This document shows, piece after piece, positions 1 to 57,824 of a stretch of DNA of 64,000 nucleotides (the stretch's first letter is position 1; each line of letters starts with the position of its first letter). The notes beneath the pieces were generated by a model. The model saw nothing but the letters and a program-made list of their open reading frames with translations, was not told the DNA's origin and made no database searches. The DNA is taken from assembly GCA_043815665.1 (NCBI GenBank), contig JBDRIT010000025.1, forward strand, positions 145,490 through 209,489. Reading direction: 5' to 3'. Position numbers and translations under genes: made by a program. This stretch comes from Pseudomonadota bacterium. GTDB taxonomy: Bacteria; Myxococcota_A; UBA9042; CAIXZC01.

Positions 1-960
1 AAGGGGATCCTCAACACCGAGACCGGGCCGAACAACGTCTTCGCCCGTGAGTTCGAGGGCCGGGTCAAGGTCATCGCGTGCCTCGACGCGCTGCCGAACC
101 TCCTCTACAACGACGCGCTGGAGCTGAGCCTGAGCGGCCGTCTCTGGGACCGGGTGCGCCACGCGGTCTCTGCGGGCCCCTCGGACGCGGTGGTCCTCGT
201 CTGGGGTCCGGAGCGTGACCTCTACACCGCGGCGAGCGAGCTCCAGATCCGCGCGCGGGAGGCCACCATCGGCGTCCCCAACGAGACCCGCCGCGCCCTG
301 GCGGACGGCTCCACGGTCTTCGAGCGGATCCTGCCGGGCCCGGATCGCATGTACCCGGACACAGACCACCCCCCCGTGGCCATCGCCGATGCCCGGGTGG
401 AGAACATCCGGGCCGGCCTCCAGCCCCTCCCCTGGGAGCGGCTCGCTGCCTACGCCGCGCAGGGGCTCCCCGAGCACCTGGGGTGCCTGATGCTCCGGAG
501 CCCCCGTCGTCAGGTGTTCGAGGAGGTCCTCGCCCTGAGCGGCTGCCCGTCCGTGGTCGTCGCAGTGGTTCTCGGCCAGCTCCTCAAGGGCCTGAAGCGG
601 GCCCGGATCCCCGTGGACGCGATCCCCGACGCGCACCTCGAGGTGCTCTTCCGCCTCTTCTCCGCAGGCCGCTTCACCCGGGAGGCCTTCCCAGAGATCC
701 TCACGAGGATGGCCGCCGCACCCGACGCGGCCCCCGGGGCCGTCATCGACGCCCTGCTCCCGCAGCCACCGCCCCCGGAGACGGTGCCCGCGCTGGTACG
801 CGATGCCCTGGCCGATGGCACCTGGCGACGCGATGGCGCCCCGGCCCGGGAGTTCCTGCTGGCCATGGCCGCTGCGATGGACAGGCTCCGGGGGCTGGTC
901 CCGGGCCGCACGGTCGCCGCGCTGGTGCGCGCCACGATCTCGGAAGGGGGTGCCGCATGA
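1..960 (+). CDS. gatE: Glu-tRNA(Gln) amidotransferase subunit E-like protein (GatB/GatE family), 5'-partial; the reading frame is open from window position 1
   Basis: Frame-1 translation is open from nt 1 (KGILNTETGPNNVF...). It contains the RILPGPDRMYPDTD motif typical of the GatB/GatE catalytic core, followed by a helical, YqeY-like tail. Its stop overlaps the start of the following asparaginase-domain gene (ATGA). Confidence 0.6.
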   Translation, partial: KGILNTETGPNNVFAREFEGRVKVIACLDALPNLLYNDALELSLSGRLWDRVRHAVSAGPSDAVVLVWGPERDLYTAASELQIRAREATIGVPNETRRALADGSTVFERILPGPDRMYPDTDHPPVAIADARVENIRAGLQPLPWERLAAYAAQGLPEHLGCLMLRSPRRQVFEEVLALSGCPSVVVAVVLGQLLKGLKRARIPVDAIPDAHLEVLFRLFSAGRFTREAFPEILTRMAAAPDAAPGAVIDALLPQPPPPETVPALVRDALADGTWRRDGAPAREFLLAMAAAMDRLRGLVPGRTVAALVRATISEGGAA

Positions 961-2351
961 CGACGGAACCGAAGGACCGCTTCAAGGGATACCGGGGACC
1001 GGCCAAGGCCACCCTCGAGGAGCACGGCGTGTCCGTGTGGAGCGACGTTGAGGTCCACTCGACCCGCGGGACCTTCCGGGGGATCATCCTGCCCCGCTCG
1101 GAGTCCGCAGATCAGATCCACCTCGTGATGAAGCTCAAGAGCGGCTACAATGTCGGGATCCGCGTGGACACCATCGAGTCGATCGAGGAGCACGGCTACC
1201 GCGAGGCCCACTACAAGATCCCCGAGAAGGCCTTTCCTTACGAGGAATCGAAGCCGAACATCATCCTCTTCGGGACCGGCGGCACCATCGCCAGTCGCCT
1301 GGACTACCGCACCGGCGCAGTGATCCCGGCCTTCTCCCCCGGGGAGCTGTACGGCTCCGTCCCGGAGCTCGCTGACATCTGCAACCTGGAGACGATCAAG
1401 CTCTACGGCGTCTTCTCCGAGAACATGGGGCCGGAGCAGTACATCGGCCTCGCGAAGGCCATCGGGAAGGCCATCGAGGACGGCAAGGACGGCGTGGTCA
1501 TCGGGCACGGCACGGACACCATGCACCACACCGCGGCGATCCTGTCCTTCATGGTCCAGGACTCGCCCATCCCCATCGTCCTCGTCGGGTCCCAGCGGTC
1601 AAGCGACCGTCCCTCGTCGGACGCCGCGCTCAACCTCATCAACGCGACGAAGACCGCCGCAGAGAGCGACATCGCCGAGGTGATGATCTGCATGTTCGGC
1701 CCGACGAGTGATGAGTACTGCCTCCTTCACCGAGGGACCCGGGTGAGGAAGATGCACTCGAGCTACCGCTCCACGTTCCGCACCATCGGCGACATCCCCA
1801 TCGGCATGGTGGACCCGGAGGACATCGTCACGTTTCGGGACGACTACAAGCGCCGCCGCACGGACCGCAACGTCATCCTCAACCCGGTCTATGACGACCG
1901 GGTGTCCATCGTGTACTACTACCCCGGCATGAAGCCGGACATCGTGGACTCGCTGATCAACAACGGCTATCGCGGCATCGTGATCGCAGGCACGGGGCTC
2001 GGGCACATGAACAAGCCCCTCTACAAGGCCCTGCGACGCGCCACGGACGAGGGCGTCCAGGTGTACATGACGGTCCAGACCCTCTGGGGCTACGTCCAGA
2101 TGTACGTCTACGAGACCGGGCGGGAGATGATGGATCTCGGCGTCATCCCTGCGGCGAACATGCTCCCCGAGGTCGCCCTCATGAAGCTCTCCTGGGCCCT
2201 GGCCCAATCCGAAGACCGGGAGGAGATCCGGCGCATCATGCTCACCCCCATCGCGGGGGAGATCACCGAGCGTGAGCCCCACGACGGGTACCTGATCCTC
2301 CAGGGAGGGCTCCCCGAGGTGGACGAGTTCTTCGCCCACCACCGAAAGTAG
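957..2351 (+). CDS. gatD: Glu-tRNA(Gln) amidotransferase subunit D (N-terminal domain plus type I L-asparaginase domain)
   Basis: The ATG at 957 overlaps the gatE stop (ATGA). A ~85-aa N-terminal domain precedes an asparaginase fold with the TGGTIA (ILFGTGGTIASRLD) and HGTDTM motifs. The 483..956 portion of the track ORF is an upstream extension in the gatE region. Confidence 0.75.
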   Translation: MTTEPKDRFKGYRGPAKATLEEHGVSVWSDVEVHSTRGTFRGIILPRSESADQIHLVMKLKSGYNVGIRVDTIESIEEHGYREAHYKIPEKAFPYEESKPNIILFGTGGTIASRLDYRTGAVIPAFSPGELYGSVPELADICNLETIKLYGVFSENMGPEQYIGLAKAIGKAIEDGKDGVVIGHGTDTMHHTAAILSFMVQDSPIPIVLVGSQRSSDRPSSDAALNLINATKTAAESDIAEVMICMFGPTSDEYCLLHRGTRVRKMHSSYRSTFRTIGDIPIGMVDPEDIVTFRDDYKRRRTDRNVILNPVYDDRVSIVYYYPGMKPDIVDSLINNGYRGIVIAGTGLGHMNKPLYKALRRATDEGVQVYMTVQTLWGYVQMYVYETGREMMDLGVIPAANMLPEVALMKLSWALAQSEDREEIRRIMLTPIAGEITEREPHDGYLILQGGLPEVDEFFAHHRK

Positions 2352-8797: not shown

Positions 8798-9148
8798 GTG
8801 ATCTCCGTCGTGATGCCGGCCTATCAACACGGGGAGCGCCTTCCCCGCGCGGTTGAAGACATCCAGAAGCAGACCTTCGTGGACCTGGAGCTGATCGTCG
8901 TCGATGACGGATCGACGGATGGGACCGGGGAGATCCTGGCGGGGGTCGCGGCAGCAGACCGGCGCGTGCGGGTGGTGGCGCTGGAACATGTGGGGCTGCT
9001 GGAGGCGCTGCGGGCGGGGGTCAATGCCGCGCACGGGGACCTCCCCATTCTCGTGGGCATCGGCGTCCGCGCCGCGAAGCCCCTCGTCCGCAGGCACATG
9101 GAGTCCCTCTCGCGGGTCGAGGGCGCGGACTGGATCTTCATCGCCTAG
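8798..9148 (+). CDS. Family 2 glycosyltransferase, N-terminal fragment (116 aa; probable truncated remnant)
   Basis: GTG immediately after the upstream TAA. ISVVMPAYQ...LELIVVDDGSTDGTGEIL is a GT2 N-terminus, but the ORF terminates before the DxD/catalytic region. Confidence 0.4.
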   Translation: MISVVMPAYQHGERLPRAVEDIQKQTFVDLELIVVDDGSTDGTGEILAGVAAADRRVRVVALEHVGLLEALRAGVNAAHGDLPILVGIGVRAAKPLVRRHMESLSRVEGADWIFIA

Positions 9149-9186
9149 CCAAGTACCATTCGGCCGTCACAGACACGGAGGTTCCC

Positions 9187-11919
9187 ATGAGCCGCTTCCC
9201 CCTCCTGACCCTCCTGTTCCTCTCCCTGGCCGCGCCCGCGCAGGGCGCCTGGACCGTGCAGCACTCGATCTGGGGAGACGGCAACACCCTGACTGGCATT
9301 GCTGCCGGGAGCGGGCTCGTCGCCGCGGCGGCGGGGGCGATCAGCGACGGCATGGGCAGCAGCAAGGCGGCGGTCTTCTCCACCACCGACGGCGGCCAGA
9401 CCTGGACCGAGACCGGCCTGGGCGGCCAGCTCGAGTTCATCTTCCACCTGGACCTCGCCAACGAGAAGATCGGCTTCGGCGGCGGCCTCGGGTTCTTCAA
9501 GACCACCGACGGCGGGAAGAGCTGGTCCAGCGTCACCCTCCCGGGCGCGGGCTTCATGACCGCGGTCAGCGCGGTCCAGGTCCTGGACCCGGCCAAGGTC
9601 TTCGTGGGCATGGAGAGCAAGCTGGTCCGGACCCTCAACACCATCAACTGGGAGGCCACGGACACGGGCATCGACTTCGGCATCCTGGACCTGCACTTCA
9701 TCGACAAGGACACCGGCTGGATCGTGGGCGGCGAGGTCGACGAGCAGGAGGGTGACCCACCGGTAAGGACCGTCCTGCCCAATGGCACGATCCTGCGCAC
9801 CAACGACGGGGGCGTGAGCTTCGCGCCCCTGGTGGGCGGCGCCGAAGAGGTCTACTCCGGGGTCACCTTCGTCTCCATGAACATCGGGATCCTGGTGGGC
9901 TACGACAAGGACTTCCGGTACTTCGTCCGGCGCACTACCGATGGCGGCGACTCCTGGACCAACGTGGAGCTGCCCCCCCACCCCTCCGGAAGCGACATCA
10001 TCGCCCTCTCCCCGCCGGAGATGATCAACATGGGCCAGGGCTGGATCGTGGGCGGCGCCGGGGTGCCCGAGGGCGGCATGGGCAACAAGCCCGTCTTCCT
10101 CCACACCTGGGACGGCGGCCTCTCCTGGGAGCACGACACGTCCTACGACGGCGGCGGCGGCACCCTGTTCGCCGTCTCCTTCCATGACGAGCACCGCGGC
10201 TGGGCCTGCGGCGACGGGGGCCTGATCATCGGCTGGAACGACGGCACGCCCTACATCCCACCGGAGCCGGAGCCTGACGCGGGGGTGATCCCCGGCCAGG
10301 ACGCCGCGGGGCCGGACCCCGACGTCTGGACCTGGGGCAAGGTCCTGGGCTCCTTCGACGACGAGGGCAACGTGGGCGCGGGCGGCGGAGAGGGCCCCGG
10401 GGATCCGGTCGACGACGTGCCCGCTGGAGTGGACGGCGGCGGCGGTGGCGCCAACTGCGACACCGTGACCGAGGCCACCGGCGGCTGCAGCGCGACCACC
10501 GCCCCGGCGGCATCCGGTGGGGTCCTGATCCTCCTGGCCCTCGCCGCGCTCGGCCTCCTCGTGCCCCGGCGCGGCGCCCTCCTGGCCCTGCTGGTGCTCC
10601 TCACCGCCTGCGGCGAGCAGACCCTGGAGCGGACCGTCTGCGCAGACACCACGGGGCCCCGGTGGGAGGAGATCGCGACCCTCCCGGACCTCGGTGACCC
10701 GACGGTGAAACCCGCGGGCTGGGGCTGCACCCTCTCCACCTCCGAGGCCCTCCCGGAGCTCGTCGCCACGACCGCCCGCACCGCGGGCTTGGGCGGCGCG
10801 ATCGCCTTCGTCCGCGCCGGGGAAGCCGGCGGCAGCGACCTCTGGCTCACGTCAGCGGAGGGCGAGGAGGTCCGCCTCACCTGGTTCGACGATCCCTCGG
10901 TGGAGGTCCGCGACCCGGCCTGGTCACCGGACCGCAGCCACCTGGTCTTTGCCTCGGACTTCCGCGCAGGGATGACCGAGACCCGCTGGAACCTCTTCGT
11001 CACCCGGGTGGACGGCAAGGGCTGCTGGCAGGTGACCCCGGCGGCGGAGGCGGTCTGCGTCCTCGACGGGGCGGACCTGGACGCCACCCTCACGGGCAAC
11101 TTCCAGATCAGCGTCGCAGGCATCGGCGCGGCCCTGGAGGGCGCGACGGTGGGGTTCCCCGGCGCGCCGGCCCTCGGCGTCACGGGCCCCGGCGGCGCGT
11201 TCAGCGTCGACGTCCCCTCGGGCGAGGGCCAGCTGGTGTTCGAGGGCTGGAAGGGCGAGACCTTCTACCGCACCGTGCTCACCTACCAGGTCGACCCGGG
11301 GAGCGCCAACAACCTCGGGCCCGTCGCTGCCACGGAGCAGCCCCTCGCGGTGCGCCTGGCGCGCCCGGTGTGGACAGCGGACTCGGGCCGGCTCATCGTC
11401 CTCCGCAGTGAGGAGGTCGCGGACTCCCTCTGGACGGTCCCCCTGGACGGGAGCCCCTGGGAGACCTGGTACGCCCCTGCGGCCTTCGCCCCCCGCTGGG
11501 TCTCTCCCTTCCCCGACGGCAGCTACCTCGCCCTGGTCCAGTCCGACGACACCCACGAGATCCACCTGGTGGACTTCGCCGAGCCCGACGACCCGGTCTA
11601 CACCGCGTTCACCGCGGACCTCGACGCAGCCCTCGGCGGCGCGGTCTCCCCCCTGAACTTCATCGCAGTGGTCATGGACGGCCGCCCCTGGATCTTCGGC
11701 GCCGATCCCGCCGGCGACCTCACCAGCCGCCCCGTCGGCCCCGACAACCTCGCGGTCGTCCCGGATCAGATCGACTGGTCCCCGGACAACACCCGCCTCG
11801 TGGTCACCATCAACTCCGCCGCCGGCCCCAACCTCGTGATCATCGACGCCAACGCGGGGACCCTCCGGACCCTGACCACCGACGGCCGATCATCGATGCC
11901 CGCGTGGTTCGGCAGGTAG
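9187..11919 (+). CDS. Fusion ORF. A BNR/Ycf48-like beta-propeller secreted protein with an internal MYXO-CTERM-like motif (ends ~10560) is joined in-frame to a lipoprotein with TolB/PD40-like and carboxypeptidase-regulatory-like regions (from GTG 10561)
   Basis: acggaggttcccATG start. Signal peptide MSRFPLLTLLFLSLAAPAQGA. Repeated T[TN]DGG[QKVD][ST][WF] BNR-like motifs. Internal CSATTAPAASGGVLILLALAALGLLVPRRG is immediately followed by ALLALLVLLTACGEQ (lipobox), with no stop codon between them. Confidence 0.6.
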   Translation: MSRFPLLTLLFLSLAAPAQGAWTVQHSIWGDGNTLTGIAAGSGLVAAAAGAISDGMGSSKAAVFSTTDGGQTWTETGLGGQLEFIFHLDLANEKIGFGGGLGFFKTTDGGKSWSSVTLPGAGFMTAVSAVQVLDPAKVFVGMESKLVRTLNTINWEATDTGIDFGILDLHFIDKDTGWIVGGEVDEQEGDPPVRTVLPNGTILRTNDGGVSFAPLVGGAEEVYSGVTFVSMNIGILVGYDKDFRYFVRRTTDGGDSWTNVELPPHPSGSDIIALSPPEMINMGQGWIVGGAGVPEGGMGNKPVFLHTWDGGLSWEHDTSYDGGGGTLFAVSFHDEHRGWACGDGGLIIGWNDGTPYIPPEPEPDAGVIPGQDAAGPDPDVWTWGKVLGSFDDEGNVGAGGGEGPGDPVDDVPAGVDGGGGGANCDTVTEATGGCSATTAPAASGGVLILLALAALGLLVPRRGALLALLVLLTACGEQTLERTVCADTTGPRWEEIATLPDLGDPTVKPAGWGCTLSTSEALPELVATTARTAGLGGAIAFVRAGEAGGSDLWLTSAEGEEVRLTWFDDPSVEVRDPAWSPDRSHLVFASDFRAGMTETRWNLFVTRVDGKGCWQVTPAAEAVCVLDGADLDATLTGNFQISVAGIGAALEGATVGFPGAPALGVTGPGGAFSVDVPSGEGQLVFEGWKGETFYRTVLTYQVDPGSANNLGPVAATEQPLAVRLARPVWTADSGRLIVLRSEEVADSLWTVPLDGSPWETWYAPAAFAPRWVSPFPDGSYLALVQSDDTHEIHLVDFAEPDDPVYTAFTADLDAALGGAVSPLNFIAVVMDGRPWIFGADPAGDLTSRPVGPDNLAVVPDQIDWSPDNTRLVVTINSAAGPNLVIIDANAGTLRTLTTDGRSSMPAWFGR

Positions 11920-11927
11920 GGACCGGA

Positions 11928-13865
11928 TCACTGGCAGTCGATCTCGAACAGGGCGCAGATGTTGTCGTGGAGCGCGGTGACCAGCTCCAGGTCATCGACA
12001 ATGGCCTCGTCGGGCGTGCTCAACGCAAGCTGGATCCCGCTGCAGAAGATCTGCGCTTCGTAGAGCTCGTCGAACGCGGCGCCGTGATCCGGGGCGTCGC
12101 CGTGGACGATCTCGCAGGCCTTCTGGATCGCGAGGCCGATGCGGAGGATGCAGAAGTTCCGCTGCATGATGGGCCCGCTGAAATAGTTCAACGGACCCTC
12201 GCCGTCCTCGGCGAAGTAGCTCAGAGAACCCATCGTGACTACCTTGGTGGCGGACTCGGTGCTGCCGTCGCTGATCACGTCGTAGCTGTAATGGATCGTG
12301 GCGAAGTCGATGGCCTGCCAGCTCGCGAAGACGTCGGGGAAGAGGCTCTTGATCTTGACCATGAGGAGCCCGTTCTTCTTGGACGCGAAGAGGGTCGCCG
12401 CGGCCTTCTCCGCATCCGTGGGGTCGGGGCCCGGGTCCCCGGGGTTCACGGGCTTGTCGGGATCGGTGATCGAATATGCGGGATCCGGTGCGAGGATCTT
12501 CACCTCGCCGGTCACCGCGTCCACGCTCCAGTCGTAGCCGTAGATCTCCTCGACCGCGAAGCCCTGGGGCAGGGAGAAGGAGATCTTCAGGTTCTCCGCG
12601 ACGGGGGTCATGAGGTACTCGATCTCGTGGATGAACACGTCCATGAGCTTGGCCGCGTCCTGGATGAAGTAGAAGTTCCCGCCGCCCTGGTTGGCCAGCT
12701 CGTACATCAGCTCCTGGTTGAAGTCCAGGCCCACCCCGATGGTGGTGATGCCGATGCCCTTCTGGTTGTACTCTGCGGACTTCGCCACGATGACGTCGGT
12801 GTCGTCCACCCCCGCGGTCACCACGCCGTCGGAGAGGAGCATGACCCGGTAGAGCGCGTCGGCGTCCGCATAGGCCTCCTTGTGGTTCTCCGCGAGCTCG
12901 TAGCCCATGACCATCCCGGCGAAGAGGTTGGTGGAGCCCTGGGTGGCGATGGACGAGATGAAGTCGGCGATCATCGGCTTGGACTCCGCGACCGTCGCCT
13001 GGAAGCCCATGAGGATCTCGGCGTCGTTGGAGTACGTGACGATCGCGAGGCGGTCGTTGTCGTCCATCTTGTCCAGGAGCAGCAACAGGCCGCTGCGCAC
13101 CATCGCGATCTTCCCGTCGGCGTTCATGCTGTCCGACTCGTCCACCACGACCACCAGGTTGAAGGACTTCTCCTCGATCTCCTGGGGGGAGATCCCGGAG
13201 TTCAGGCCGATCTGCATCGCGATGAGGGGCTCCTCCACCTGGGGATCATAGAAGAGCCCCAGGAACCCGTGGAGGGTCGCGAACATGTCGTAGTCCGGCG
13301 CAGGCAGGGGGGTGTCGTGCTCGTTGAGGAAGCCCTCGATGGGGAAGAGGTCCGGCGTCGGCACCTCGCCGTTCTTTACGAGGAGCCGGAAATACCCCAC
13401 ATCCTGGGCGCCCCCGGGCTTGAGACCGATGCCCGAGCCCCCGCCGGAGCAGACCCCGCCGCAACCGTCCTCTTCGCCGATCAGCTTCTCCCCACAGTCG
13501 GGGACGCAGTCGCCGGGATCCACGCACTGGCCCCCCTGGCAACTCTGGCTAGCCGAGCACCAGCCGCAGGACCCGCCGCAGCCGTCGGGGCCGCATTGAA
13601 TTCCCCCACAGGAGGGCTCGCAGCTCCCATGGGAGTCTCCCGGGATTCCGACGTCTTCGCCGGGTGCCGTGCTGTCGCTGCTCATGGAGTCCATTGCGCC
13701 GCCGGAATCGTCCGCCGCTGTGACTCCGCTCCCACCGCCACCGCCCCAGAGATCTCCGCTGCCGCTGGTGCAGCCCGCCCCGGACAGGCCCACGAGGCCC
13801 AGCACGACGAGAATTGCCCACAGCGCCCCTGCGCGTTCGACGACGGTGTGCGTGCTCCGGTTCAT
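11928..13865 (-). CDS. von Willebrand factor A (VWA) domain lipoprotein with Cys-rich N-terminal region
   Basis: Lipobox LVGLSGAGC. MIDAS motif DESDSM in VVVDESDSMNADGKI...TYSNDAEIL...GSTNLFAGM...LLSDG. Confidence 0.75.
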   Translation of the reverse strand: MNRSTHTVVERAGALWAILVVLGLVGLSGAGCTSGSGDLWGGGGGSGVTAADDSGGAMDSMSSDSTAPGEDVGIPGDSHGSCEPSCGGIQCGPDGCGGSCGWCSASQSCQGGQCVDPGDCVPDCGEKLIGEEDGCGGVCSGGGSGIGLKPGGAQDVGYFRLLVKNGEVPTPDLFPIEGFLNEHDTPLPAPDYDMFATLHGFLGLFYDPQVEEPLIAMQIGLNSGISPQEIEEKSFNLVVVVDESDSMNADGKIAMVRSGLLLLLDKMDDNDRLAIVTYSNDAEILMGFQATVAESKPMIADFISSIATQGSTNLFAGMVMGYELAENHKEAYADADALYRVMLLSDGVVTAGVDDTDVIVAKSAEYNQKGIGITTIGVGLDFNQELMYELANQGGGNFYFIQDAAKLMDVFIHEIEYLMTPVAENLKISFSLPQGFAVEEIYGYDWSVDAVTGEVKILAPDPAYSITDPDKPVNPGDPGPDPTDAEKAAATLFASKKNGLLMVKIKSLFPDVFASWQAIDFATIHYSYDVISDGSTESATKVVTMGSLSYFAEDGEGPLNYFSGPIMQRNFCILRIGLAIQKACEIVHGDAPDHGAAFDELYEAQIFCSGIQLALSTPDEAIVDDLELVTALHDNICALFEIDCQ

Positions 13866-16171: not shown

Positions 16172-17065
16172 TTAGAAGTAGATCGTCGCGCCGGCCATGA
16201 ACTGGGCGCCGATGTTCCACTGGTCATTCGTGTCCAGGGTCGACAGCCCGTTGCAGTACCCGGCCTTGCCGCCGATGGTCTGGATGCACTCCCGCTCGAT
16301 GGACGACTGGGAGCCGAGGTTCTTGAAGAGCCCCAGGAGCCGTGCGTCTGCGGTGAGGCCGAACCAGTCAGTGATCTTGATCTCGAGCCCCGCGCCGAGC
16401 TGGCCGGCGAACTGGACCGTGTCGTACCGGAAGCCGCCGGCGTACTCCAGCTTGGTGAAGTGGGCGCCGAGGCCGGCCAGGACGTGCGGCCTGAAGCGGC
16501 TGCCTGGGAAGAACTGGTAGTACGCGCTGAGCATGAGCGGGAAGGTGGTCTGGACCACCTCGGTGCCGTCACCCCCACGCAGCCAGTCCAGGCCCAGCTC
16601 CAGGCCCCAGTGCTCCGAGACCTTGCCGCGGAACTGGATCCCCAGGCCCCCCATGGTGGGGTTCTCCACCGTGGCGAGGTTGAGCATCTCCCCCTGCACC
16701 GTCGCGGCGACGACGCGGAGGGCCACGCCCAGGCGCTGGGTCTCGTCGGTGTCCCGGACGACGGTCCGGCGCTCACGGCGATGGACGACCACGGTCTCGT
16801 GCGCAGGCACCACCACGGGCTGGTGGACGACCACCGTGTGGCGCACCACCGGGCGGTACCGACGGACCGGGACGTAGCGCCGCACCGGGGCATACCCGTG
16901 GTGTCCGACGACCTTCTTCTTCATGACCTTCTTGTGCTGCTTGACCAGGATCTTTGCCGCCTGACCGTCCCCGTCCTGGCCTCCCGCAGGAGCCGCGCGG
17001 AGACCGACGGGGGCCACCAGCAGGAGGGCCGCCAGGGTGCAGATCATCGTGCGCTTCGTCTTCAT
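16172..17065 (-). CDS. Outer-membrane beta-barrel protein with basic Val/Arg/His-rich N-terminal region
   Basis: aagaggaggtcggagATG. Signal peptide MKTKRTMICTLAALLLVAPVGLRAAPA. C-terminal ...GATIYF (terminal Phe). The track ORF's upstream 55 codons are discarded. Confidence 0.7.
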   Translation of the reverse strand: MKTKRTMICTLAALLLVAPVGLRAAPAGGQDGDGQAAKILVKQHKKVMKKKVVGHHGYAPVRRYVPVRRYRPVVRHTVVVHQPVVVPAHETVVVHRRERRTVVRDTDETQRLGVALRVVAATVQGEMLNLATVENPTMGGLGIQFRGKVSEHWGLELGLDWLRGGDGTEVVQTTFPLMLSAYYQFFPGSRFRPHVLAGLGAHFTKLEYAGGFRYDTVQFAGQLGAGLEIKITDWFGLTADARLLGLFKNLGSQSSIERECIQTIGGKAGYCNGLSTLDTNDQWNIGAQFMAGATIYF

Positions 17066-17135
17066 CTCCGACCTCCTCTTTCGCTTGTCAAGATGGCGTG
17101 GTCTTGCCATCATGGCGGGTCCAGACGAGGGGGTA

Positions 17136-17966
17136 ATGATGCTATTCATTGACCGGGCGTTCGGGTGGCTCAAGGAACACCTGGACACCATCGACGAGGA
17201 GTACATCGAGAAGAAGAAGGAGCCGAGCACCGCGCGCCTGCTCGGGGTCGTCTACTTCTCCGCGATGATGCTCCTGCTCCTCAACTACATCGTCATCAAC
17301 TACCAGAACCAGCTCGACCTCGCGAACTGGATCGTCGGCCTGGTGGGGACCGTGGCGGGCCCCGAGGCGGAGGCCACCTGGTCCTTCCACCTCCCCCTGA
17401 TCATGAAGGGAACCTGGAGCCTCGGCTGCATCTTCTTCTACCTGGTCCTGCCCGGGCTCTACACGAAGTTCGTGCTGAAGCGCAAGCTCTCGGACTATGG
17501 CATCTCTCCCAGGGGCTTCCTCCGGCACCTGCCCATCTACGTCGTCCTGTTCCTGCCCGTGCTGGCGTGCGTGTACGTGGTGTCCTTCCGGCCGGAGTTC
17601 CTGCAGACCTACCCCTTCTACCACTTCCCCGCGTCCATCGAGCACCTGCTCCTCTGGGAGCTGATGTACGGGGTCCAGTTCTTCAGCCTGGAGTTCTTCT
17701 TCCGGGGCTTCTTCATGGCGGAGTGGCGGGAACGCATCGGCTGGCGCGCCGTGCTGATCATGGTGATCCCCTACTGCATGATCCACTTCCCCAAGCCCGG
17801 GCTCGAGGCCGCCGGCGCGATCATCGCCGGGTCGGTCCTGGGTGTCCTCGCGCTGCGGACCCGGTCGATCTGGGGCGGCGTCGCCATCCACGTCACCGTG
17901 GCGTGGACCATGGACCTCATGTCCCTGTGGCAGAGAGGCTGGTTCAAGGTGCTCGGAGGGGAGTAG
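17136..17966 (+). CDS. CPBP family intramembrane glutamic endopeptidase (CAAX protease/Abi-like)
   Basis: Multiple TM helices. EExxxR-like LEFFFRGF and a conserved His (HVTVAW). Start at ATGATG, preceded by gaggggg. Confidence 0.75.
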   Translation: MMLFIDRAFGWLKEHLDTIDEEYIEKKKEPSTARLLGVVYFSAMMLLLLNYIVINYQNQLDLANWIVGLVGTVAGPEAEATWSFHLPLIMKGTWSLGCIFFYLVLPGLYTKFVLKRKLSDYGISPRGFLRHLPIYVVLFLPVLACVYVVSFRPEFLQTYPFYHFPASIEHLLLWELMYGVQFFSLEFFFRGFFMAEWRERIGWRAVLIMVIPYCMIHFPKPGLEAAGAIIAGSVLGVLALRTRSIWGGVAIHVTVAWTMDLMSLWQRGWFKVLGGE

Positions 17967-19752: not shown

Positions 19753-20640
19753 TCAGGCGATCCGACGGCGTCGCAGGGCGAGGGGGAGGACCAGGAGGAA
19801 GAGCAGGAGCCCTGACCCCAGATCCGAGCGGGACCCCATGTCGCAACAGCAGCTCTCCTTGGGGCCGCCACCCTCGACCTCGAAGGGCTCGGGATTGGGC
19901 TCGATGACGAGATCGGGCCCGATCTCGGAGTCGGCTTCGGGCTCGGGCTCGGGGGGCGCGTCGCTGCAAGAGAAGAGGGTCCGGTCGTAGACCGCGCAGA
20001 CGCCGTCGAGGTCATCCTGCTGAGGTTCCAGGGGGTTGTCATCAGCCAGGTAGATGTCCCCATCGGAGTACAGGATCGAGTCCGGGTCCTCGGAGTGAGC
20101 GAGGCCATAGACGTGGCCCAGCTCGTGGGCGACGGCGAAGCGGTAGTCCACGACGTCGTCGGGATCAACGCCCTCGGTGTCGAGGCCGAAGTCGAAGCCG
20201 TCCTCGTTGATGTCGATGTCCACGTCCCCCAGATATCCCGTGGAGGGAAGGTAGTTCAGCACCGTCAACATCGCAGCGCCGTTGTAGTCCGGGTGCGCCA
20301 ACGCCCAACCGGAGGGGGACACCACGATGCAGTTCTGCTCTTCCCCGGGAAATGCGGGCTTGTGGACCTCGCAGCCGCCGTCCACCCCGTCGAGGATCAG
20401 CCGGATATCCGTGCAGGGATTCGCATTCCAGAGATCCATCGCGTCTTCGAAGAGGGTGAACTCCTGCATCCCCGGGATCGATTCGATGCCGGCAGGGTTG
20501 TACTGGAAGGCGATGGAGCAGGGCCCACCGCTCTTCCAGCGTACGGTCTCGCCGCTGGACTCGGAGGTGTAGTAGACCCAGGCCTCGGCCGGGGACGGGA
20601 CCAGGAGGAGCGCCACCAGGATCGCGGCGGGGGCCTTCAC
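19753..20640 (-). CDS. Secreted metzincin-type zinc metalloprotease with C-terminal MYXO-CTERM sorting tail
   Basis: HELGHVYGLAHS (HExxHxxGxxH). The C-terminus ESCCCDMGSRSDLGSGLLLFLLVLPLALRRRRIA is a MYXO-CTERM tail. The GTG start at 20640 overlaps the upstream gene's TGA (GTGA). Confidence 0.75.
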   Translation of the reverse strand: MKAPAAILVALLLVPSPAEAWVYYTSESSGETVRWKSGGPCSIAFQYNPAGIESIPGMQEFTLFEDAMDLWNANPCTDIRLILDGVDGGCEVHKPAFPGEEQNCIVVSPSGWALAHPDYNGAAMLTVLNYLPSTGYLGDVDIDINEDGFDFGLDTEGVDPDDVVDYRFAVAHELGHVYGLAHSEDPDSILYSDGDIYLADDNPLEPQQDDLDGVCAVYDRTLFSCSDAPPEPEPEADSEIGPDLVIEPNPEPFEVEGGGPKESCCCDMGSRSDLGSGLLLFLLVLPLALRRRRIA

Positions 20641-21458
20641 ACCATCCTCCGCCGTCTCGTGAGCATGGCGATCCCTGCGAGGAGCAGGAGCACCCCGGAG
20701 CCCGACGCCGATTGGCTTGCGGCGGTGCAGCTCGGGTTGGACGCGGGACCCGGGGGTACGTCGGGGTCGTCCACCCACAGGTCCAGCTTCTGGACCTCCT
20801 CGCAGGTGGTTGCGCCTCCGGTGAGAGGATAGAGGGTGCAGAGCCCGTCCACGTCGTCCTTGTCCAGGGTGCGCTTCACGGTCTCTCCGAACACCGAGTA
20901 CTCGTACATGGTGGCCTTGACCTTGTTGCTGTGGTCCAGGCCCACGATGTGTCCCGCCTCATGGGTGATGGTGTTCTGGATGTCGATGTCCCCAGGGTCC
21001 ATGTCCGGTCCCCCGGCCGTGAACTCGTAGTCCTCCGCGTTGAGCTCGATGTCCGCGTCGAAGATCACCCCGGTCACGGGGTTGTAGGTCACACTGGTGA
21101 AGGCCACGGGGCGCTGGTCGTAGGGCCAGTCCTCCTCGTGGAAGATCACGATGTTGGCGTTGCCCCCGTAGCTGGTGTACCCGATCCATTGCATGTTCGT
21201 GAGGCCGCCCCAGACCATGGTGAACCCAGAGCACTCCTCCGCGTTCCAGGTCTCCAGGGACAAGCGAATCGCCTCGATGTCCGAGCCGTCGTCCACGTCC
21301 GCCGAGCCGTCCAGGTACGCGTAGACCACGTGGCAGAGGTCAGGCCAATGGAGGCCCGCCCCCTTGGACGAGTTGGACTGGACCCAGGCCGGGACGGGAG
21401 TGGACCATGCGAGGACGGCGAAGAACACCAGGCCTGTGGCTCCGGCGCGCGCCGTCAC
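20637..21458 (-). CDS. Secreted metzincin-type zinc metalloprotease paralogue with MYXO-CTERM tail
   Basis: HEAGHIVGLDHS plus a Met-turn (ATMY). The C-terminus NPSCTAASQSASGSGVLLLLAGIAMLTRRRRMV is a MYXO-CTERM tail. The GTG at 21458 overlaps the upstream TGA. The 174-codon Arg/Gly/Pro-rich N-terminal extension of the track ORF is rejected. Confidence 0.7.
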   Translation of the reverse strand: MTARAGATGLVFFAVLAWSTPVPAWVQSNSSKGAGLHWPDLCHVVYAYLDGSADVDDGSDIEAIRLSLETWNAEECSGFTMVWGGLTNMQWIGYTSYGGNANIVIFHEEDWPYDQRPVAFTSVTYNPVTGVIFDADIELNAEDYEFTAGGPDMDPGDIDIQNTITHEAGHIVGLDHSNKVKATMYEYSVFGETVKRTLDKDDVDGLCTLYPLTGGATTCEEVQKLDLWVDDPDVPPGPASNPSCTAASQSASGSGVLLLLAGIAMLTRRRRMV

Positions 21459-21973
21459 CGGGTCGCCCCACCCTTCAGGCGGTCCCGGAGCGCGTCCTCG
21501 CTGATCCGATCCGGCGCGCCGTCCGCGGGCTGACCGACGAAGTGGATGGCCCCGAGGTCGCGGACCAGGACCCTGCCCTCGGGCCCGTCCTGGACCCGGA
21601 AGACCCCCTGGGCCATGCCGGTGACCACGTAGCCCGAGGATCCCTCCCGCAGGCAGAGCACCAGCTCCTCGCCGGAGCTCAGGCGCGCCGCGCCGGTCAC
21701 GATCTGGCCCAGGTCCGCGGTCTCTCCGCCGAGAGTGACGACCACGAGCTCGGTCGCTGCGGGCCCCTTCAGGGCTTCCCGCACCGCGAACCGATGCCGG
21801 GTGGAGATCCGGCCCCGCGACTCGTCGAGGACCGCCTCGGAGCCGATCACCTCGCCCAGGACCACGCGGTCGGAGCGCTCGATGATCTCGTCCAGGGTCA
21901 TGGGGGCGAAGACCGCTGCGTGGGCGGGAGACATCACGGTGAGGAGCAGGAGGAGGAACAGGAGCGGACGCAT
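21455..21973 (-). CDS. Small secreted hypothetical protein, first gene of the metzincin operon
   Basis: Signal peptide MRPLLFLLLLLTVMSPAHAA. Translationally coupled to the downstream protease genes. Confidence 0.6.
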   Translation of the reverse strand: MRPLLFLLLLLTVMSPAHAAVFAPMTLDEIIERSDRVVLGEVIGSEAVLDESRGRISTRHRFAVREALKGPAATELVVVTLGGETADLGQIVTGAARLSSGEELVLCLREGSSGYVVTGMAQGVFRVQDGPEGRVLVRDLGAIHFVGQPADGAPDRISEDALRDRLKGGATR

Positions 21974-22176
21974 GGGACACCTCCAGTCACGGGGCCGGCC
22001 CCGAGCATCTTCGACATTCTAGCGTGAAATCGGCCCGGTGTCAGCGGGCCGGCGCGTTCCCTCACCCGCAGCGGAAGGAATCTCTCCTTGCCCGCGTGGG
22101 GAACAAGGTTTAGTTTACTCCGTTGGCTCTATATTGATCAGTTTTGATCGAGTTTGATGAAGTGCCGGAGGAAGAG

Positions 22177-35365: not shown

Positions 35366-38300
35366 TCAGAGCTGGAAACTGAAGAGGCTGAGTGTCCATG
35401 GCCACCCAAGGCCAGTGACAACGTAGACCGTGCCGTTGGTTTCTATCGCTAGCTGTGAGCCTCCCAGCCCGTCATCGACCAGGGGCACAGAGATCTCGTT
35501 CCAGGTCGTTCCATCGAAGGAGTGAAGGGTCAAGCCGGAATTGTTGAACATCGAGTGGAGCTTGGATTCGAAGGGCACCGTCGCTGTGCCGCTGTAGCTG
35601 CTGACAGTCGAGCAGATCTGCCACCCCGTCGCTGCGGTATGGCAGTAGGCGGGTGAGTGCTGTAAGGTCGCGACGATCGTCTCTCCTTGAATCGAAACGT
35701 GGTTGTTTGACGAGGTCTGAGCATTTGTAGGGAGGTCGCCGGGGTCTCCCACGACCGACCATGTGTCGTCGGAGAACCGCATAATGATGTTGTGTACCGA
35801 ATCGGCCCACTCAGGATCCGACGCGCCAATTCCAACCTCGCTCGGCTGCTGCGTGAAGAAGACATAGGGCGTCCCGCCGGTCACTGCGAGGTCAAAGAAG
35901 CCCTGCCCGCCATAGGACCACACACCGAGGCCCTCGGGGCCCGAGTAGCCGACCGGCTCCCAGGTGTTCGTGTCGGTGTCGAGCTTCTTGACGCTCAGCC
36001 GCCAGTTGTAACCCGAGCTTCCGTCCTCATTGTGTATGTAGGCGACGTAGAGGTCACCGTTGTCGTCGAAGTCGATCACGCTGCCGCCTGTCGTGCCGGG
36101 TGCGTGATTCGGTAACGCCTCCCAGGTGCTGTCTGAGTACACCCGGATAGCGCCAGAGAAACCGGAGACGTACAGCTTGTTGTCATTGACCTTGGCAGAG
36201 ATTACGTAGCTGAGCGGCATCTCCAAGCCGTCGCTGGCTGACACCCAGGCTTCCCCGTCCCAGCGGCGCACAGAGACCTCTCCCAAGGCTTCCTGTCCCG
36301 CCCACGCCGCCACGGTGACCAGGTACGGCTCGTCATCAAGGAGAGCCAGCTTGAATTTGTACGTGTTCGCCAGGAAATCTGTCGCCAGCTCCGTCCATTC
36401 GGGGATGATGACGTTGACGCAACCGCTCTCAGGATCGCAGGAGTCGGCGGTGCCTGGGTTGCCGTCGTCGCAGCCGCCCTCGGCGACAGGAACCGTTGCC
36501 GAGGGTGTGTGGTTACAGATGGCGCTTTCACCCGATGTGCAACTGTCCAGGGTGCAGGGGTCGTCGTCGTCACAACCGTCGGGCTCCAGGATCTCCACGG
36601 AAGGCGTGCCCGCGCAGGCGCCCTGGTCGTCGCAGACGTCGAGCAAGGTGCAGACATCCAGATCGTCACATGAGGTCTCCCCGGGCATGTCGCAGGCCTC
36701 GCTCTCCTCCAACATTGGGCATTCGACGCCACCGCAGGCAGGCTCCAGAGTGATCGCACGGCTATGAAGCCGGGTCCCCTGGCAGGTCCCGTCGTCGGTC
36801 TCGCATGACGCCCAGTCACCCCAGTCGGAGACCATGCAGTCGATGGGCACGTTGGTGTGGACGCAGCCGGTGGCTTCTTCGCAGGTGTCCGCGGAGCAAG
36901 GATCCTCATCCGTGCAGTCCACCGCGTCACCGGGCACGCACTGGCCCTCTGCGCAGATGTCGATGCCGGTGCAGGCGTTCTCATCGTCGCAGAGCTCTTG
37001 ATTGGGCGTAAAGACGCAGCCCTCCGCGGGGTCGCAGGAGTCATCGGTGCATGGGTTCTCGTCGTCGCAGACCTCGACGCCGGTGGTCATGCACTGCGAG
37101 TCTGCGCAGTGGTCACCGAGGGTGCAGGCGTCGTCGTCGGTGCACTCTGCCGCGTTCGCTGTGAAGACGCACTCGCCCTCCACGCAGACGTCGTCGGTGC
37201 AGACGTTCTCGTCATCGCAGACCTTGGCCATGCCCGACTGGCACGCACCCTCGACGCAGACGTCGCCCAGGGTGCAGGCGTCGGCGTCGGTGCACTCCAG
37301 GACGTTGTTGGCATTGACACACCCCGTCGCTGGATCGCAGGAGTCATCGGTGCAGACGTTCCCGTCGTCGCAGTCCGGGATCCCCGTGGTCACGCAGCTC
37401 CCCTCCTCGCAGTGGTCCCCCGTGGTGCAGGCGTCCGCGTCGGTGCAGGACTCCAGGTTGTTCGCGAAGACGCAGCCCGACGCGGGGTCGCAGGACTCGG
37501 TGGTGCAGACGTTGCCGTCGTCACAGTTCACGAGGGGCGCCAGCGTGAAGCAGCTCCCGCCGCTGCACATCTCGTCCACGGTGCACGCGTCCCCGTCGTC
37601 GCAGGGCAGGGTGTTGAAGTCGTGGACGCAGCCCACCGCGGGGGCGCAGGAGTCGTCGGTGCAGAGGTTCCCGTCGTCGCAGGGCAGCGCGCCCGTGGCC
37701 GCACAGACTTCGTCCTCGCAGTGATCCCCGACGGTGCAGAGGTTCACGTCGGTGCAAGGGTTGTCGTTGGGGGCGTAGACGCAGCCGGACATGGGATCGC
37801 AGGTGTCCGTGGTGCAGACGTTCTCGTCATGGCAGTTGGTCGGCAGGCCATCTTCGCACACCCCGGCGACGCAGATCGTGGCCATGGTGCAGAGATCCCC
37901 GTCATCACAGGCTGCCCCATCGTTGGCCGGCACGAAGGAGCACTCCCCCGTCCCTGGATCGCAGAAGCTCTCCAGGCACTCGGCCCCCAGCCCCTGGGGC
38001 TTCACGCACAGGGTCCAGGTGTAGGGGGTCACCGCGCACTTGGGCGGCAGGGCGATGAGGTCGCATTGGAGGGCTCCAGCGCAGAGGTCCAGGGCCGCGA
38101 TCTCGTCACAGTCCCCATCGACCGTGCAGCCGCACGGGACCTCGAAGCCGACGCAGACCCCGTCGGTGCAGTTGTCGCTGACCGTGCACGGGTCCATGTC
38201 GTTGCAGGGCACGTGGTTGTCCGGGTGGATGCAGCCGTCCACGGGATCGCAGACGTCGTCGGTGCAGAGGTCGCCGTCGTCGCAGTCGATCGCGTCCCCG

Positions 38301-38923
38301 GTGCACACGCCGGCGATGCAGGTGTCGTTCTCCGTGCAGATCGACGCGTCGTCGCATTCGGTCTCCCACACCAGCGCGTGGTCACAGTCACCGTCGGCCC
38401 CGCAAGAGTCGATGGTGCACACGTTGTCGTCGTCGCAGTCCACTGCCGATCCAGCGCAGATCCCGGCCCCGTCGCAGAGGTCGTCCTCGGTGCAGGGATC
38501 CCCGTCGTCGCAGGCCCCGCCATCGAGGAGTTCGCTGACACAGCCCTCGGTGCCCGCGCAGCTGTCCACGGTGCAGGGGTCCCCGTCGTCGCACTCGCCC
38601 GAGACCATGTCCAGGTTGTCCACCTCGCCGTCACAGTCGTTGTCGAGGCCGTCGCAGATCTCGTCCTCGGGGACGCAGGGCGGGGCCTCTGGTGGCAGAT
38701 CCTCCGGCGCCACGTCGAGATCGTCCGTCAGGACGTCCGACGCGTCCGGCATCATCGCGTCGGGTTCCACCTGGTCACCGGACACCAGCTCCGACACGTC
38801 CGGCTCGACCGCCGTGTCGGTGTCCTGGGTGGGTCCCGTGCATCCGAAGACCAGGACACAGGCCAGGAGGACGGCCGGGCGGACGAAAATCAACCCTGGT
38901 TTCATCATTCTCTCGTTCATCAT
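35366..38923 (-). CDS. Lipoprotein with ~35 tandem Myxo-type Cys-rich repeats (C-x-D-D/E-N-x-C-T-x-D-x-C) and a C-terminal beta-propeller-like domain
   Basis: Lipobox LVFGCTG. Repeats such as CDDGDPCTVDSCAGTEGC. C-terminal ~420 aa are Cys-poor. The ATG overlaps the upstream TGA (ATGA). Confidence 0.75.
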   Translation of the reverse strand: MMNERMMKPGLIFVRPAVLLACVLVFGCTGPTQDTDTAVEPDVSELVSGDQVEPDAMMPDASDVLTDDLDVAPEDLPPEAPPCVPEDEICDGLDNDCDGEVDNLDMVSGECDDGDPCTVDSCAGTEGCVSELLDGGACDDGDPCTEDDLCDGAGICAGSAVDCDDDNVCTIDSCGADGDCDHALVWETECDDASICTENDTCIAGVCTGDAIDCDDGDLCTDDVCDPVDGCIHPDNHVPCNDMDPCTVSDNCTDGVCVGFEVPCGCTVDGDCDEIAALDLCAGALQCDLIALPPKCAVTPYTWTLCVKPQGLGAECLESFCDPGTGECSFVPANDGAACDDGDLCTMATICVAGVCEDGLPTNCHDENVCTTDTCDPMSGCVYAPNDNPCTDVNLCTVGDHCEDEVCAATGALPCDDGNLCTDDSCAPAVGCVHDFNTLPCDDGDACTVDEMCSGGSCFTLAPLVNCDDGNVCTTESCDPASGCVFANNLESCTDADACTTGDHCEEGSCVTTGIPDCDDGNVCTDDSCDPATGCVNANNVLECTDADACTLGDVCVEGACQSGMAKVCDDENVCTDDVCVEGECVFTANAAECTDDDACTLGDHCADSQCMTTGVEVCDDENPCTDDSCDPAEGCVFTPNQELCDDENACTGIDICAEGQCVPGDAVDCTDEDPCSADTCEEATGCVHTNVPIDCMVSDWGDWASCETDDGTCQGTRLHSRAITLEPACGGVECPMLEESEACDMPGETSCDDLDVCTLLDVCDDQGACAGTPSVEILEPDGCDDDDPCTLDSCTSGESAICNHTPSATVPVAEGGCDDGNPGTADSCDPESGCVNVIIPEWTELATDFLANTYKFKLALLDDEPYLVTVAAWAGQEALGEVSVRRWDGEAWVSASDGLEMPLSYVISAKVNDNKLYVSGFSGAIRVYSDSTWEALPNHAPGTTGGSVIDFDDNGDLYVAYIHNEDGSSGYNWRLSVKKLDTDTNTWEPVGYSGPEGLGVWSYGGQGFFDLAVTGGTPYVFFTQQPSEVGIGASDPEWADSVHNIIMRFSDDTWSVVGDPGDLPTNAQTSSNNHVSIQGETIVATLQHSPAYCHTAATGWQICSTVSSYSGTATVPFESKLHSMFNNSGLTLHSFDGTTWNEISVPLVDDGLGGSQLAIETNGTVYVVTGLGWPWTLSLFSFQL

Positions 38924-53085: not shown

Positions 53086-53374
53086 CCTGCTCCTTGCGTG
53101 CATGTGTGTGGGCCAAAGTGCCCCATCCGATGTGGGGGTGGCCCTGCACTCCGCGGTTCCTCCGAATCATCCCATGCCCTCCGACAAATTCAAGCCCTAT
53201 CAACTCTTCCACTGGCACTCCCTCTTGCATGGCGCGCCGGAGGAGCGTATAGAATGCGCACGTCCATCCCGGACTGCGGCGAAGGAAAGACGCCACGACA
53301 CCCAGGCAACAACAGGCGACGGCAGCGCTCCGCATCGAAGCCTTCGAGCTCTCCTCCCTCGTGGATACCACCCC

Positions 53375-53830
53375 GTGAGCGTGGAGATCCAGCCCCTCCA
53401 TGATCTCGACTCGATCCGCCAGCTGATCCGCATCCACGACGCGGCCTGGAAGGGCTCCACGGGGATCCTGGACCTCCTGAGGAACTCCACCACCTGTCTG
53501 CTCGCTCGGGGTCCCCGGGGCCGCATCGTGGCGTACCTCTTCCTCGAGGAGGACCGGTCCCGGGGCTTCTTCGAGATCCAGGACGTGGTGGTGCACCGCC
53601 GCCACCGCCGCAAGGGCTACGGGCGCCTCATCGTGGAGGCGGCCATGGCCCGCTGCTGCGCGCTCAAGCTCCTGGCCAGCGCCAACAAGCCCGGCCTGCT
53701 GCATTTCTACAGCGGCCTCGGGTTCGAGGTAGAGCACCGCATCGAGAACTACTACGACGTGGGGGACGACGCGGTCCGCATGAGCTGGCGAGGTGCGTCG
53801 CCCTCCGGCGGAGGCGCGGCCAATCAGTAG
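53375..53830 (+). CDS. GNAT family N-acetyltransferase
   Basis: Acetyl-CoA-binding region VVVHRRHRRKGYGRLIV. GTG start. ~151 aa. Confidence 0.7.
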   Translation: MSVEIQPLHDLDSIRQLIRIHDAAWKGSTGILDLLRNSTTCLLARGPRGRIVAYLFLEEDRSRGFFEIQDVVVHRRHRRKGYGRLIVEAAMARCCALKLLASANKPGLLHFYSGLGFEVEHRIENYYDVGDDAVRMSWRGASPSGGGAANQ

Positions 53831-55467: not shown

Positions 55468-55630
55468 CAGAAGCTCCCCACCCCGTCAATCGAGCACGCT
55501 CCGGGAGCGGGCTGGCGATGAAACATCTTCGGCCCGTTCATCTCCCACAACGCGAGGGTATGGAGCGCCAAGCAGTTGTCAAGGGCCCCAATGGTGCAGA
55601 TTCCCGGGATGTCGAACCACGGCAGGTTCT

Positions 55631-57664: not shown

Positions 57665-57824
57665 ACGTCCACCTCGACGTCCACTCGTCGCGCAGGATAC
57701 AGAGTGACTGCGCCCCCCGCAACGGGCTGTTTCAATTCGTTTTGATTTGACCCACCGCTCCTGTTGTCAAGCACCTCCCGAAACCCTACTGTATAGCTCG
57801 CAAGCTGGGGGGGGAGGAGTTCCA

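Follow-up and report, generated by a model that had tools for sequence, protein, structure and literature searches.

A 64,000-nucleotide (nt) stretch of contig JBDRIT010000025.1 (positions 145,490 to 209,489, forward strand), hereafter the window, belongs to a metagenome-assembled genome (MAG) deposited as Pseudomonadota bacterium (GCA_043815665.1) and placed by GTDB in Myxococcota_A. Its positions 9187..11919 hold a gene for a protein of 910 amino acids (aa) in which two β-propeller modules are fused in frame. The protein carries, in this order, a Sec signal peptide, a Ycf48-like propeller, a MYXO-CTERM-type sorting element, a lipoprotein signal peptide and a PD40 propeller. It is identical to NCBI MAG protein ABIK09_02875, found in a search of 5.8 billion proteins and deposited as 'hypothetical protein'. 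The gene has the following features.

9177..9181, + strand: Shine-Dalgarno sequence GGAGG, 6 nt 5' of the ATG at 9187
9187..11919, + strand: whole fusion gene, 910 aa, ATG start, single open reading frame (ORF) with no stop
9187..9246, + strand: N-terminal Sec-type signal peptide, residues 1-20 (MSRFPLLTLLFLSLAAPAQG then AW), hydrophobic at residues 4-17, without lipobox
9247..10254, + strand: Ycf48-like / BNR β-propeller, residues ~21-356, Pfam PF14870 (PSII_BNR/Ycf48)
10255..10455, + strand: Gly/Pro/Asp-rich linker, residues 357-423
10456..10494, + strand: cysteine signature C424-x9-C434 (TGGC-SA), Cys434 being the predicted lipidation/cleavage residue
10522..10566, + strand: hydrophobic helix H1, residues 446-460 (VLILLALAALGLLVP), predicted stop-transfer segment, N-out/C-in
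10561..10563, + strand: in-frame GTG encoding V459, not a conserved start codon
10567..10572, + strand: basic loop R461-R462, predicted cytoplasmic
10573..10608, + strand: H2, hydrophobic (h-) region, residues 463-474 (GALLALLVLLTA), predicted re-insertion/signal segment, N-in/C-out
10600..10611, + strand: lipobox L472-T473-A474-C475, with Cys475 predicted to carry the diacylglyceryl group and to begin the mature C-terminal product
10609..11916, + strand: C-terminal module, residues 475-910, ending ...DGRSSMPAWFGR, with a PD40 match and standalone lipoprotein homologues

The G+C content at third codon positions (GC3) is 0.95 over the whole ORF and 0.86-1.00 per 150-nt interval, junction included, a continuity indicating that one frame is coding throughout. 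An original prediction, made from the letters of the window, had described two secreted-protein modules joined by a MYXO-CTERM-type element and a lipoprotein signal with no stop codon between them. ORF, junction residues, hidden Markov model (HMM) score and lipobox all agree with this description. Residues 424-478 read as quoted there, CDTVTEATGGC(434)SATTAPAASGGVLILLALAALGLLVPRR(461-462)GALLALLVLLTAC(475)GEQ, and divide into CDTVTEATGGC434-SATTAPAASGG-VLILLALAALGLLVP-RR-GALLALLVLLTA-C475-GEQ. The joining of two modules is borne out by the existence of standalone lipoproteins homologous to the C-terminal half, and by Ycf48-like propellers that elsewhere usually bear C-terminal sorting domains.

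Close orthologues number eight, at 64-83% identity. Six from ENA, JGI and NCBI assemblies are full-length proteins of 914-922 aa with 67-80% identity to the window protein, all of them uninterrupted. A further orthologue in a GTDB 'uncultured Myxococcales' MAG (CAZNWW010000587.1) is likewise an uninterrupted fusion; its N-terminal part is out of frame at L008:1140-1260, where a frameshift or low-coverage error is probable. Beyond these there are at least 11 distant fused relatives: P0125, P0126, P0127, P0130, P0133, P0134, P0135, P0137 and P0138 (889-989 aa), the fragment P0128, and L013 (933 aa), from a metagenome scan. All have the same junction, and their N- and C-terminal halves are respectively 31-49% and 28-36% identical to those of the window protein. 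The two halves have thus co-diverged, which points to one old fusion. Altogether at least 19 independent sequences share the uninterrupted ORF, and to the question raised with the original prediction, whether orthologous loci hold one gene or two, the answer is one gene in all. A codon alignment of six orthologue genes reveals several independent insertions or deletions in the junction, all of them whole codons. The fusion ORF is genuine, ancient and in frame, and defines a conserved family in uncultured Myxococcota.

The junction drifts, much as a signal peptide does, around fixed points. Among the close orthologues its amino acid identity of 0.39-0.59 resembles that of the N-terminal signal peptide (0.47) and not that of the propellers (0.75-0.80); its cysteine motif, at 0.81, stands out. 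Cys434 and Cys475 are each present in 16 of 16 aligned full-length members and C424 in 14 of them. The original prediction had seen both signals as stranded inside the protein. The features that define each of them all persist throughout the family, whereas the remainder of the junction varies, and both look maintained, as this pattern of sequence conservation suggests, by selection at the level of features.

The MYXO-CTERM-type element spans residues 424-462 and comprises the cysteine motif, helix H1 and the arginine pair. Excised residues 421-462 align with positions 3-33 of the 34 in the MYXO-CTERM model TIGR03901 and score 20.3 bits (cutoff 20), so that the model ends exactly at the arginine pair. 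The best 19-mer of H1 has a value of -1.46 kcal/mol on the Hessa scale, and the H1 core measures 12-24 aa in the family. The tripartite architecture is general: Cys434 is found in all 16 aligned members, followed by the H1 core, and the basic cluster in 19 of 19. Curated cutoffs of TIGR03901 or TIGR03382 (MYXO-CTERM / GC_trans_RRR) are reached by 10 of 16 excised family junctions, and one member's junction also passes the JDVT-CTERM model. As 448 residues follow R462, the position is not the C-terminal one of MYXO-CTERM; the element is an internal MYXO-CTERM-like one, not a canonical member. The original prediction had likened it to the tails of two metalloproteases of the window, and the comparison holds, with 20.3 bits on TIGR03901 against 22.8 and 12.4. 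Both metalloprotease ORFs match the 'myxosortase-dependent metalloprotease' family.

20637..21986, - strand: metalloprotease ORF (stop-to-stop) with terminal MYXO-CTERM tail; NF041905 144.7 bits; tail 22.8 bits on TIGR03901 (cutoff 20)
19753..20958, - strand: metalloprotease ORF (stop-to-stop) with terminal Cys-type tripartite tail; NF041905 49.5 bits; tail 12.4 bits on TIGR03901

Bacterial lipoproteins are matured by Lgt, LspA and Lnt at a lipobox, for which PROSITE PS51257 gives the rule. The PROSITE-style lipobox pattern matches the window protein exactly once, at residues 465-475 (LTAC), directly after the arginine pair, where the original prediction had placed a lipoprotein signal. Each of the 17 members tested has a single occurrence, at the aligned site; 13 fit the strict pattern and 4 a slightly relaxed one. 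The composition is that of a signal peptidase II (SPII) signal, with lipobox cysteine, uncharged h-region and basic n-region; the position is not N-terminal, the lipobox cysteine being residue 475. The uncharged run of H2 is 12-18 aa long across the family (median 15) and its best 19-mer has an unfavourable value, +6.18 kcal/mol in the window protein and +1.5 to +7.3 in the family, so that H2 would make a poor stable transmembrane helix. The internal h-region and lipobox would function like an SPII signal, without being a canonical member of that class. R461-R462 has a double role: it supplies the sorting element with its arginine cluster and the lipoprotein signal with its n-region. All 19 members have a loop with a net charge of +2 to +5. 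In 18 of them the flanks carry a net negative charge (in one of these, zero), a distribution consistent with an out-in-out topology. A search of the six-frame translation of ~180 kb, made up of the window and related loci, and of 274 proteins, found the composite pattern (cysteine, helix, basic loop, h-region, lipobox cysteine) only in family members; judged on these sequences, it is not a chance arrangement. The original prediction had coupled the existence of uninterrupted orthologous fusions to an internal segment resembling an ordinary pair of transmembrane helices: the fusions exist, but the segment is no such pair.

The N-terminal half is a Ycf48-like propeller at the level of fold. PF14870 matches it with 45.6 bits (cutoff 27) and PDB Ycf48 chains with E values of 2e-8 to 7e-7, in agreement with the BNR/Ycf48-like propeller first proposed for this half. 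It is not Ycf48 itself, as the Ycf48/HCF136 equivalog NF010237 gives 49 bits against a cutoff of 326. The dN/dS ratio of the propeller is 0.29. The signal peptide was called by rule, its cleavage site being placed by the A-x-[AG] pattern; the hydrophobic N-terminus and A-x-[AG] are kept in all orthologues. Related Ycf48-like propellers are typically secreted and end in a sorting domain, in most cases PF18962 of the type IX secretion system (T9SS). P0067, considered as a standalone N-terminal module with a terminal MYXO-CTERM, has a cysteine-containing tail that matches no curated sorting model and was not used as evidence.

The C-terminal half begins with a ~60-aa acidic tether, continues with PD40/TolB-type blades and has an inserted β-rich segment (~636-705). 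Pfam gives a PD40 match; similarity is otherwise limited to PD40/TolB-type repeats. A profile search of PDB finds propellers of TolB and of S9 peptidases, the TolB matches covering ~45 residues, and the TolB equivalog TIGR02800 scores 25-28.5 bits over one or two blades against a cutoff of 343. The half is made of PD40-type blades and is not TolB. From the TolB/PD40-like lipoprotein originally proposed, the blades and the kinship with lipoproteins are retained and the assignment to TolB is not. An exhaustive profile search of 1.84 billion cluster representatives with the C-terminal half (a word-indexed search gave only 4 matches and missed orthologues) brought up standalone homologues of 410-432 aa, P0152, P0179, P0149, P0158 and P0176. 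They share 25-29% identity with it from the first blade to a common ...DG.S..P.W.GR end, and their signal peptides are of textbook lipoprotein type, such as MRRLGLAIVVFASC and MRALLLLAWLLSAC, with lipoboxes ending in FASC, LSAC, ALGC, TAGC and LAAC, respectively. The lipobox cysteine is the sole cysteine in 4 of these 5 proteins.

The standalone homologues indicate that the C-terminal module occurs in nature as an ordinary lipoprotein and that the internal signal was carried into the fusion. At module level an origin by gene fusion is well supported by these comparisons; the ancestral gene pair is hypothetical. Two observations are counted on the negative side: scans of genome and metagenome contigs gave no adjacent unfused propeller and lipoprotein genes, only fused relatives or truncated contigs, and the standalone C-module genes lie in a different conserved neighbourhood, adjoining a UbiE-type methyltransferase gene, with no propeller gene 5' of them. 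Origin in the opposite direction, by fission of the fused gene into standalone forms, may also be considered. Two ORFs contain shortened versions of the fusion protein and are either natural deletion variants or assembly chimeras: in P0121, on a JGI contig of 1.6 kb, a GT2 N-terminus is joined at 'WY' to the last ~150 aa, and in L016:1288-2196 a piece of the N-terminal propeller is joined to the last ~130 aa.

We favour, with moderate confidence and on the sequence features described above, the hypothesis that the precursor is cut into two lipid-anchored β-propellers in a 1:1 ratio. The N-terminal signal peptide, which is plainly visible, would send the first propeller through Sec. H1, to judge from charge and hydrophobicity, would then stop transfer and leave the arginine loop in the cytoplasm, and H2 would insert N-in/C-out to restart export of the second propeller. 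Lgt and LspA would lipidate and cut at Cys475, as the lipobox and the standalone homologues suggest, making the C-terminal module a conventional lipoprotein. Cysteine motif, HMM scores and synteny point to lipidation of Cys434, after which a myxosortase-type CPBP protease could cut and so deliver the N-terminal module to the surface. A hairpin peptide of ~40 residues (435-474) would remain in the inner membrane and be discarded. The protease could be encoded ~5 kb 3' of the fusion gene.

17139..17966, + strand: CPBP (Rce1-like) intramembrane glutamic protease, candidate myxosortase, Pfam PF02517; start chosen as the Met aligned to the orthologue in L005

Wherever a contig extends far enough, in the window and in L003, this gene and the fusion gene are syntenic; in L005, the most divergent orthologue locus, the CPBP gene lies ~1 kb 3'. 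Its family is large and mainly labelled Myxococcota. Its product is a candidate sorting enzyme on sequence grounds, not an established myxosortase, and no source names it one. In the window, L003 and L005 the CPBP gene forms a conserved pair, close to the fusion gene, with a divergent outer membrane protein (OMP) β-barrel gene (16172-17230, - strand).

A more elaborate version of this hypothesis, which we advance tentatively and place somewhat below an even chance, is a bacterial membrane 'polyprotein': a hairpin with two mirrored signals, the sorting tag on its outgoing arm and the lipoprotein signal on its returning arm, each arm offering a lipidatable cysteine on the periplasmic side. Two membrane peptidases, a myxosortase-type CPBP protease and LspA, would cut it into two propellers in fixed 1:1 stoichiometry, one product probably at the surface and the other tethered inside the outer membrane; Lgt might act on both cysteines. 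For the C-terminal module, the Gly at +2 predicts sorting to the outer membrane.

Several points weigh against cleavage at both sites. The two cuts are inferred from sequence features, and the literature searched, which was covered incompletely, offered no example in bacteria of an internal signal peptide handled by LspA or Lgt. The match of the window segment to TIGR03901 is marginal (20.3 bits against 20) and falls to 15.6 when H2 is attached; the model was not reported in the HMM scan of the full-length protein, and 6 of 16 junctions miss the curated cutoffs. As to the enzyme, the best NCBIfam match of the CPBP protein is the MrtA archaeomyxosortase, with 69 bits against a cutoff of 200, and no other Mrt model matches; its third motif, IHVTVAW rather than a clear HxxxN, looks atypical; and the L009 locus, home of a distant relative, has no CPBP gene within 10 kb. 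The AlphaFold2 (AF2) models carry no structural claim, being too poor, with a predicted local distance difference test (pLDDT) of 43.5 for the C-terminal half (7-sequence alignment) and 32.0 for the full-length protein. Apart from Cys434, C424 and C475, further cysteines are kept (C485, C514, C613), and together with C424 they may leave room for disulfide roles, a link between the two products being possible. C424, C485, C514 and C613 (nt 10456-10458, 10639-10641, 10726-10728 and 11023-11025) are kept in 14-16 of 16 fused members and missing from 4 of 5 standalone C-module lipoproteins.

Readings in which one or both signals act as mere anchors together retain a sizeable minority of the probability. 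The one that survives best, unlikely in our estimate but carrying real weight, holds that the protein stays uncleaved and that the former signals serve only as a two-helix anchor, keeping both propellers on the periplasmic side of the inner membrane. Two hydrophobic segments around a basic loop would suit it, as would the helices that AF2 places, with low confidence, at 444-458 and 464-472, the extra conserved cysteines if they form disulfides, and the lack of documented processing of internal lipoprotein signals in the literature searched. An anchor, however, needs neither an invariant cysteine ~10 residues before H1 nor a lipobox cysteine after H2, both kept in 16 of 16 members down to ~30% identity. 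H2, with its 12-18 residues and unfavourable 19-mers, is poorly made for the task, and in most members the element, once excised, gets a MYXO-CTERM score.

Use of only one signal is quite unlikely. LspA could free the C-terminal module and leave the N-terminal one on H1, or a myxosortase could free the N-terminal module and leave the C-terminal one on the hairpin. Use of a single signal draws on the contrast between a lipobox found in 17 of 17 members (13 strict) and MYXO-CTERM scores that are marginal in several, and on the restriction of CPBP linkage to close orthologues. Against this, the conservation of Cys434 and of the surrounding G-C-[SAT] equals that of Cys475, which is hard to explain if only the helix mattered.

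Very improbable is internal initiation at GTG 10561, by which the C-terminal module would be made alone as a prolipoprotein (MPRRGALLALLVLLTAC...), beside or instead of the full-length protein. Translation from this codon would give a textbook lipoprotein precursor, and the original prediction, which noted the in-frame GTG correctly, had the signal begin there. The corresponding codon is CTG in six aligned orthologue genes, no GGAGG occurs on the + strand between 10098 and 10665, that is over ~460 nt 5' of the GTG, against 6 nt at the true start, and no promoter-like site lies near the junction, all of which makes an internal start unlikely. A sequencing or assembly indel that conceals two genes, the first kind being one possibility named in the original prediction, and a stop codon lost only very recently in this MAG have nothing beyond the unusual architecture in their favour and are reduced to a negligible probability by one ORF in at least 19 sequences from different assemblies and pipelines, junction indels in multiples of three, continuous GC3, halves co-diverged to ~30% identity and no terminator-like or promoter-like site at the junction.

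Processing of the precursor at both cysteines can be set against several known systems. In the published working model of MYXO-CTERM sorting, proteins are exported by Sec, anchored by the transmembrane segment, lipidated on the cysteine, cleaved by MrtX and exported via type II secretion (T2SS) (PMC11980579). The fusion family resembles canonical MYXO-CTERM/MrtX substrates (TIGR03901; PMC11980579; bioRxiv 10.1101/2023.06.07.544157) in its tripartite element, Sec signal, occurrence in Myxococcota and proximity to a CPBP gene and to genes of proteins with terminal MYXO-CTERM tails. It differs in that the element is followed by 448 residues instead of ending the protein, and in that, by NCBIfam cutoffs, the CPBP protein encoded nearby is none of MrtX, MrtC and MrtP. 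Sorting tags of the sortase and archaeosortase types work when placed internally (PMC11980579). One instance is a Haloferax volcanii substrate of ArtA with a non-C-terminal PGF-CTERM, which, as relayed through reference 46 of PMC11980579 (Abdul Halim et al. 2017), shows a sorting signal processed away from the C-terminus; that system is archaeal and its enzyme belongs to another class.

The closest parallel is MXAN_5598 of Myxococcus xanthus, a rare ORF with an internal MYXO-CTERM, presumed to be a gene fusion and with an N-terminal part proposed to be still processed and surface-anchored (PMC11980579, mBio 2025). Compared by description only, both proteins have a MYXO-CTERM-type element in mid-ORF, with a surface module on its N-terminal side and an envelope module on its C-terminal side. 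There the modules are an adhesin and an outer membrane β-barrel/OmpA, whereas here they are two β-propellers; no lipoprotein signal after the motif is mentioned for MXAN_5598 (PMC11980579). A whole family exists here, in which the second signal is conserved, and it may show whether internal MYXO-CTERM tags are processed. The enzyme that lipidates MYXO-CTERM proteins has been posed as an open question, with Lgt raised as a candidate (PMC11980579). Lipidation of both cysteines by Lgt, if true, would make the family a test substrate for it.

With conventional lipoprotein maturation the internal signal shares the basic n-region, the h-region of 12-18 residues, the [LVI..][..][AGS]-C motif and the flexible acidic tether. 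It differs by lying 460 residues inside a precursor, by lacking an initiator Met of its own and by having an n-region common to the sorting element. The literature searched, of incomplete coverage, gave no instance, among bacteria, of a lipoprotein signal placed internally or of one precursor yielding two lipoproteins. New with respect to the known systems are a lipoprotein signal that shares the basic loop of a sorting element, a deep conserved family, and standalone homologues from which the second signal can be traced.

The polyproteins of viruses and eukaryotes offer an analogy. In flavivirus prM/E/NS1 a stop-transfer anchor is followed by the signal peptide of the next protein, and IGSF1 and influenza C p42 are further examples of internal signal peptides. 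Anchor helix, cytosolic loop and signal helix cut on the far side, with two products from one chain, are features in common; the cut is there of signal peptidase I type, in the endoplasmic reticulum and without lipidation, and no evolutionary relation exists. C-terminal sorting tags and lipoprotein signals are usually read as markers of protein ends, and here they stand back to back in one conserved ORF. If both are used, bacteria would obtain from one chain two lipid-anchored proteins with different destinations, a route to stoichiometric pairing so far tied to viral and eukaryotic polyproteins. HMM scans of full-length proteins missed the internal element and the deposited annotation is 'hypothetical'; similar hairpins may be overlooked elsewhere.

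The genes around the fusion gene follow a conserved order: an NAGPA-like glycosidase, a variable GT2, the fusion gene, a VWA protein, a protein of 514 aa of unknown function, the OMP β-barrel and the CPBP/Rce1-like protease. Beyond the CPBP gene lie an epimerase gene and the two metalloproteases with MYXO-CTERM tails. This company suggests cell-envelope or surface-glycan biology. The VWA-domain neighbour (11928-13865, - strand), convergent to the fusion gene and next to it in L001-L003, has a lipoprotein-like start (...LVGLSGAGC) followed by a Cys-rich stretch. Directly 5' of the fusion gene, the GT2 gene (8798-9148, + strand) is a remnant of 116 aa. Compared with its 337-aa orthologue of L001, it keeps the first ~65 and last ~48 residues after an in-frame loss of ~220 codons. 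GT2 is intact in L001 and L002 and absent from L003 and L004.

Further away, positions 483-2351 (+ strand) encode GatD, a Glu-tRNA(Gln) amidotransferase subunit of archaeal type (513 bits on NF003217, cutoff 310), in this Myxococcota-like MAG. In the orthologous locus L001 GatD lies beside RtcB and archease, and no GatE is seen in the adjacent ORF. Two large proteins with Dictyostelium-type Cys-rich CTDC repeats, a eukaryote-like set, are encoded at 35366-38923 and 38920-41577 (both - strand), one with TSP1/spondin and the other with FGE-sulfatase domains. Three paralogous arylsulfotransferase (ASST) genes are clustered at 53824-59414, and beside them, at 48943-53103, lies the gene of a hybrid histidine kinase / response regulator / AraC protein with Reg_prop and Y_Y_Y domains.

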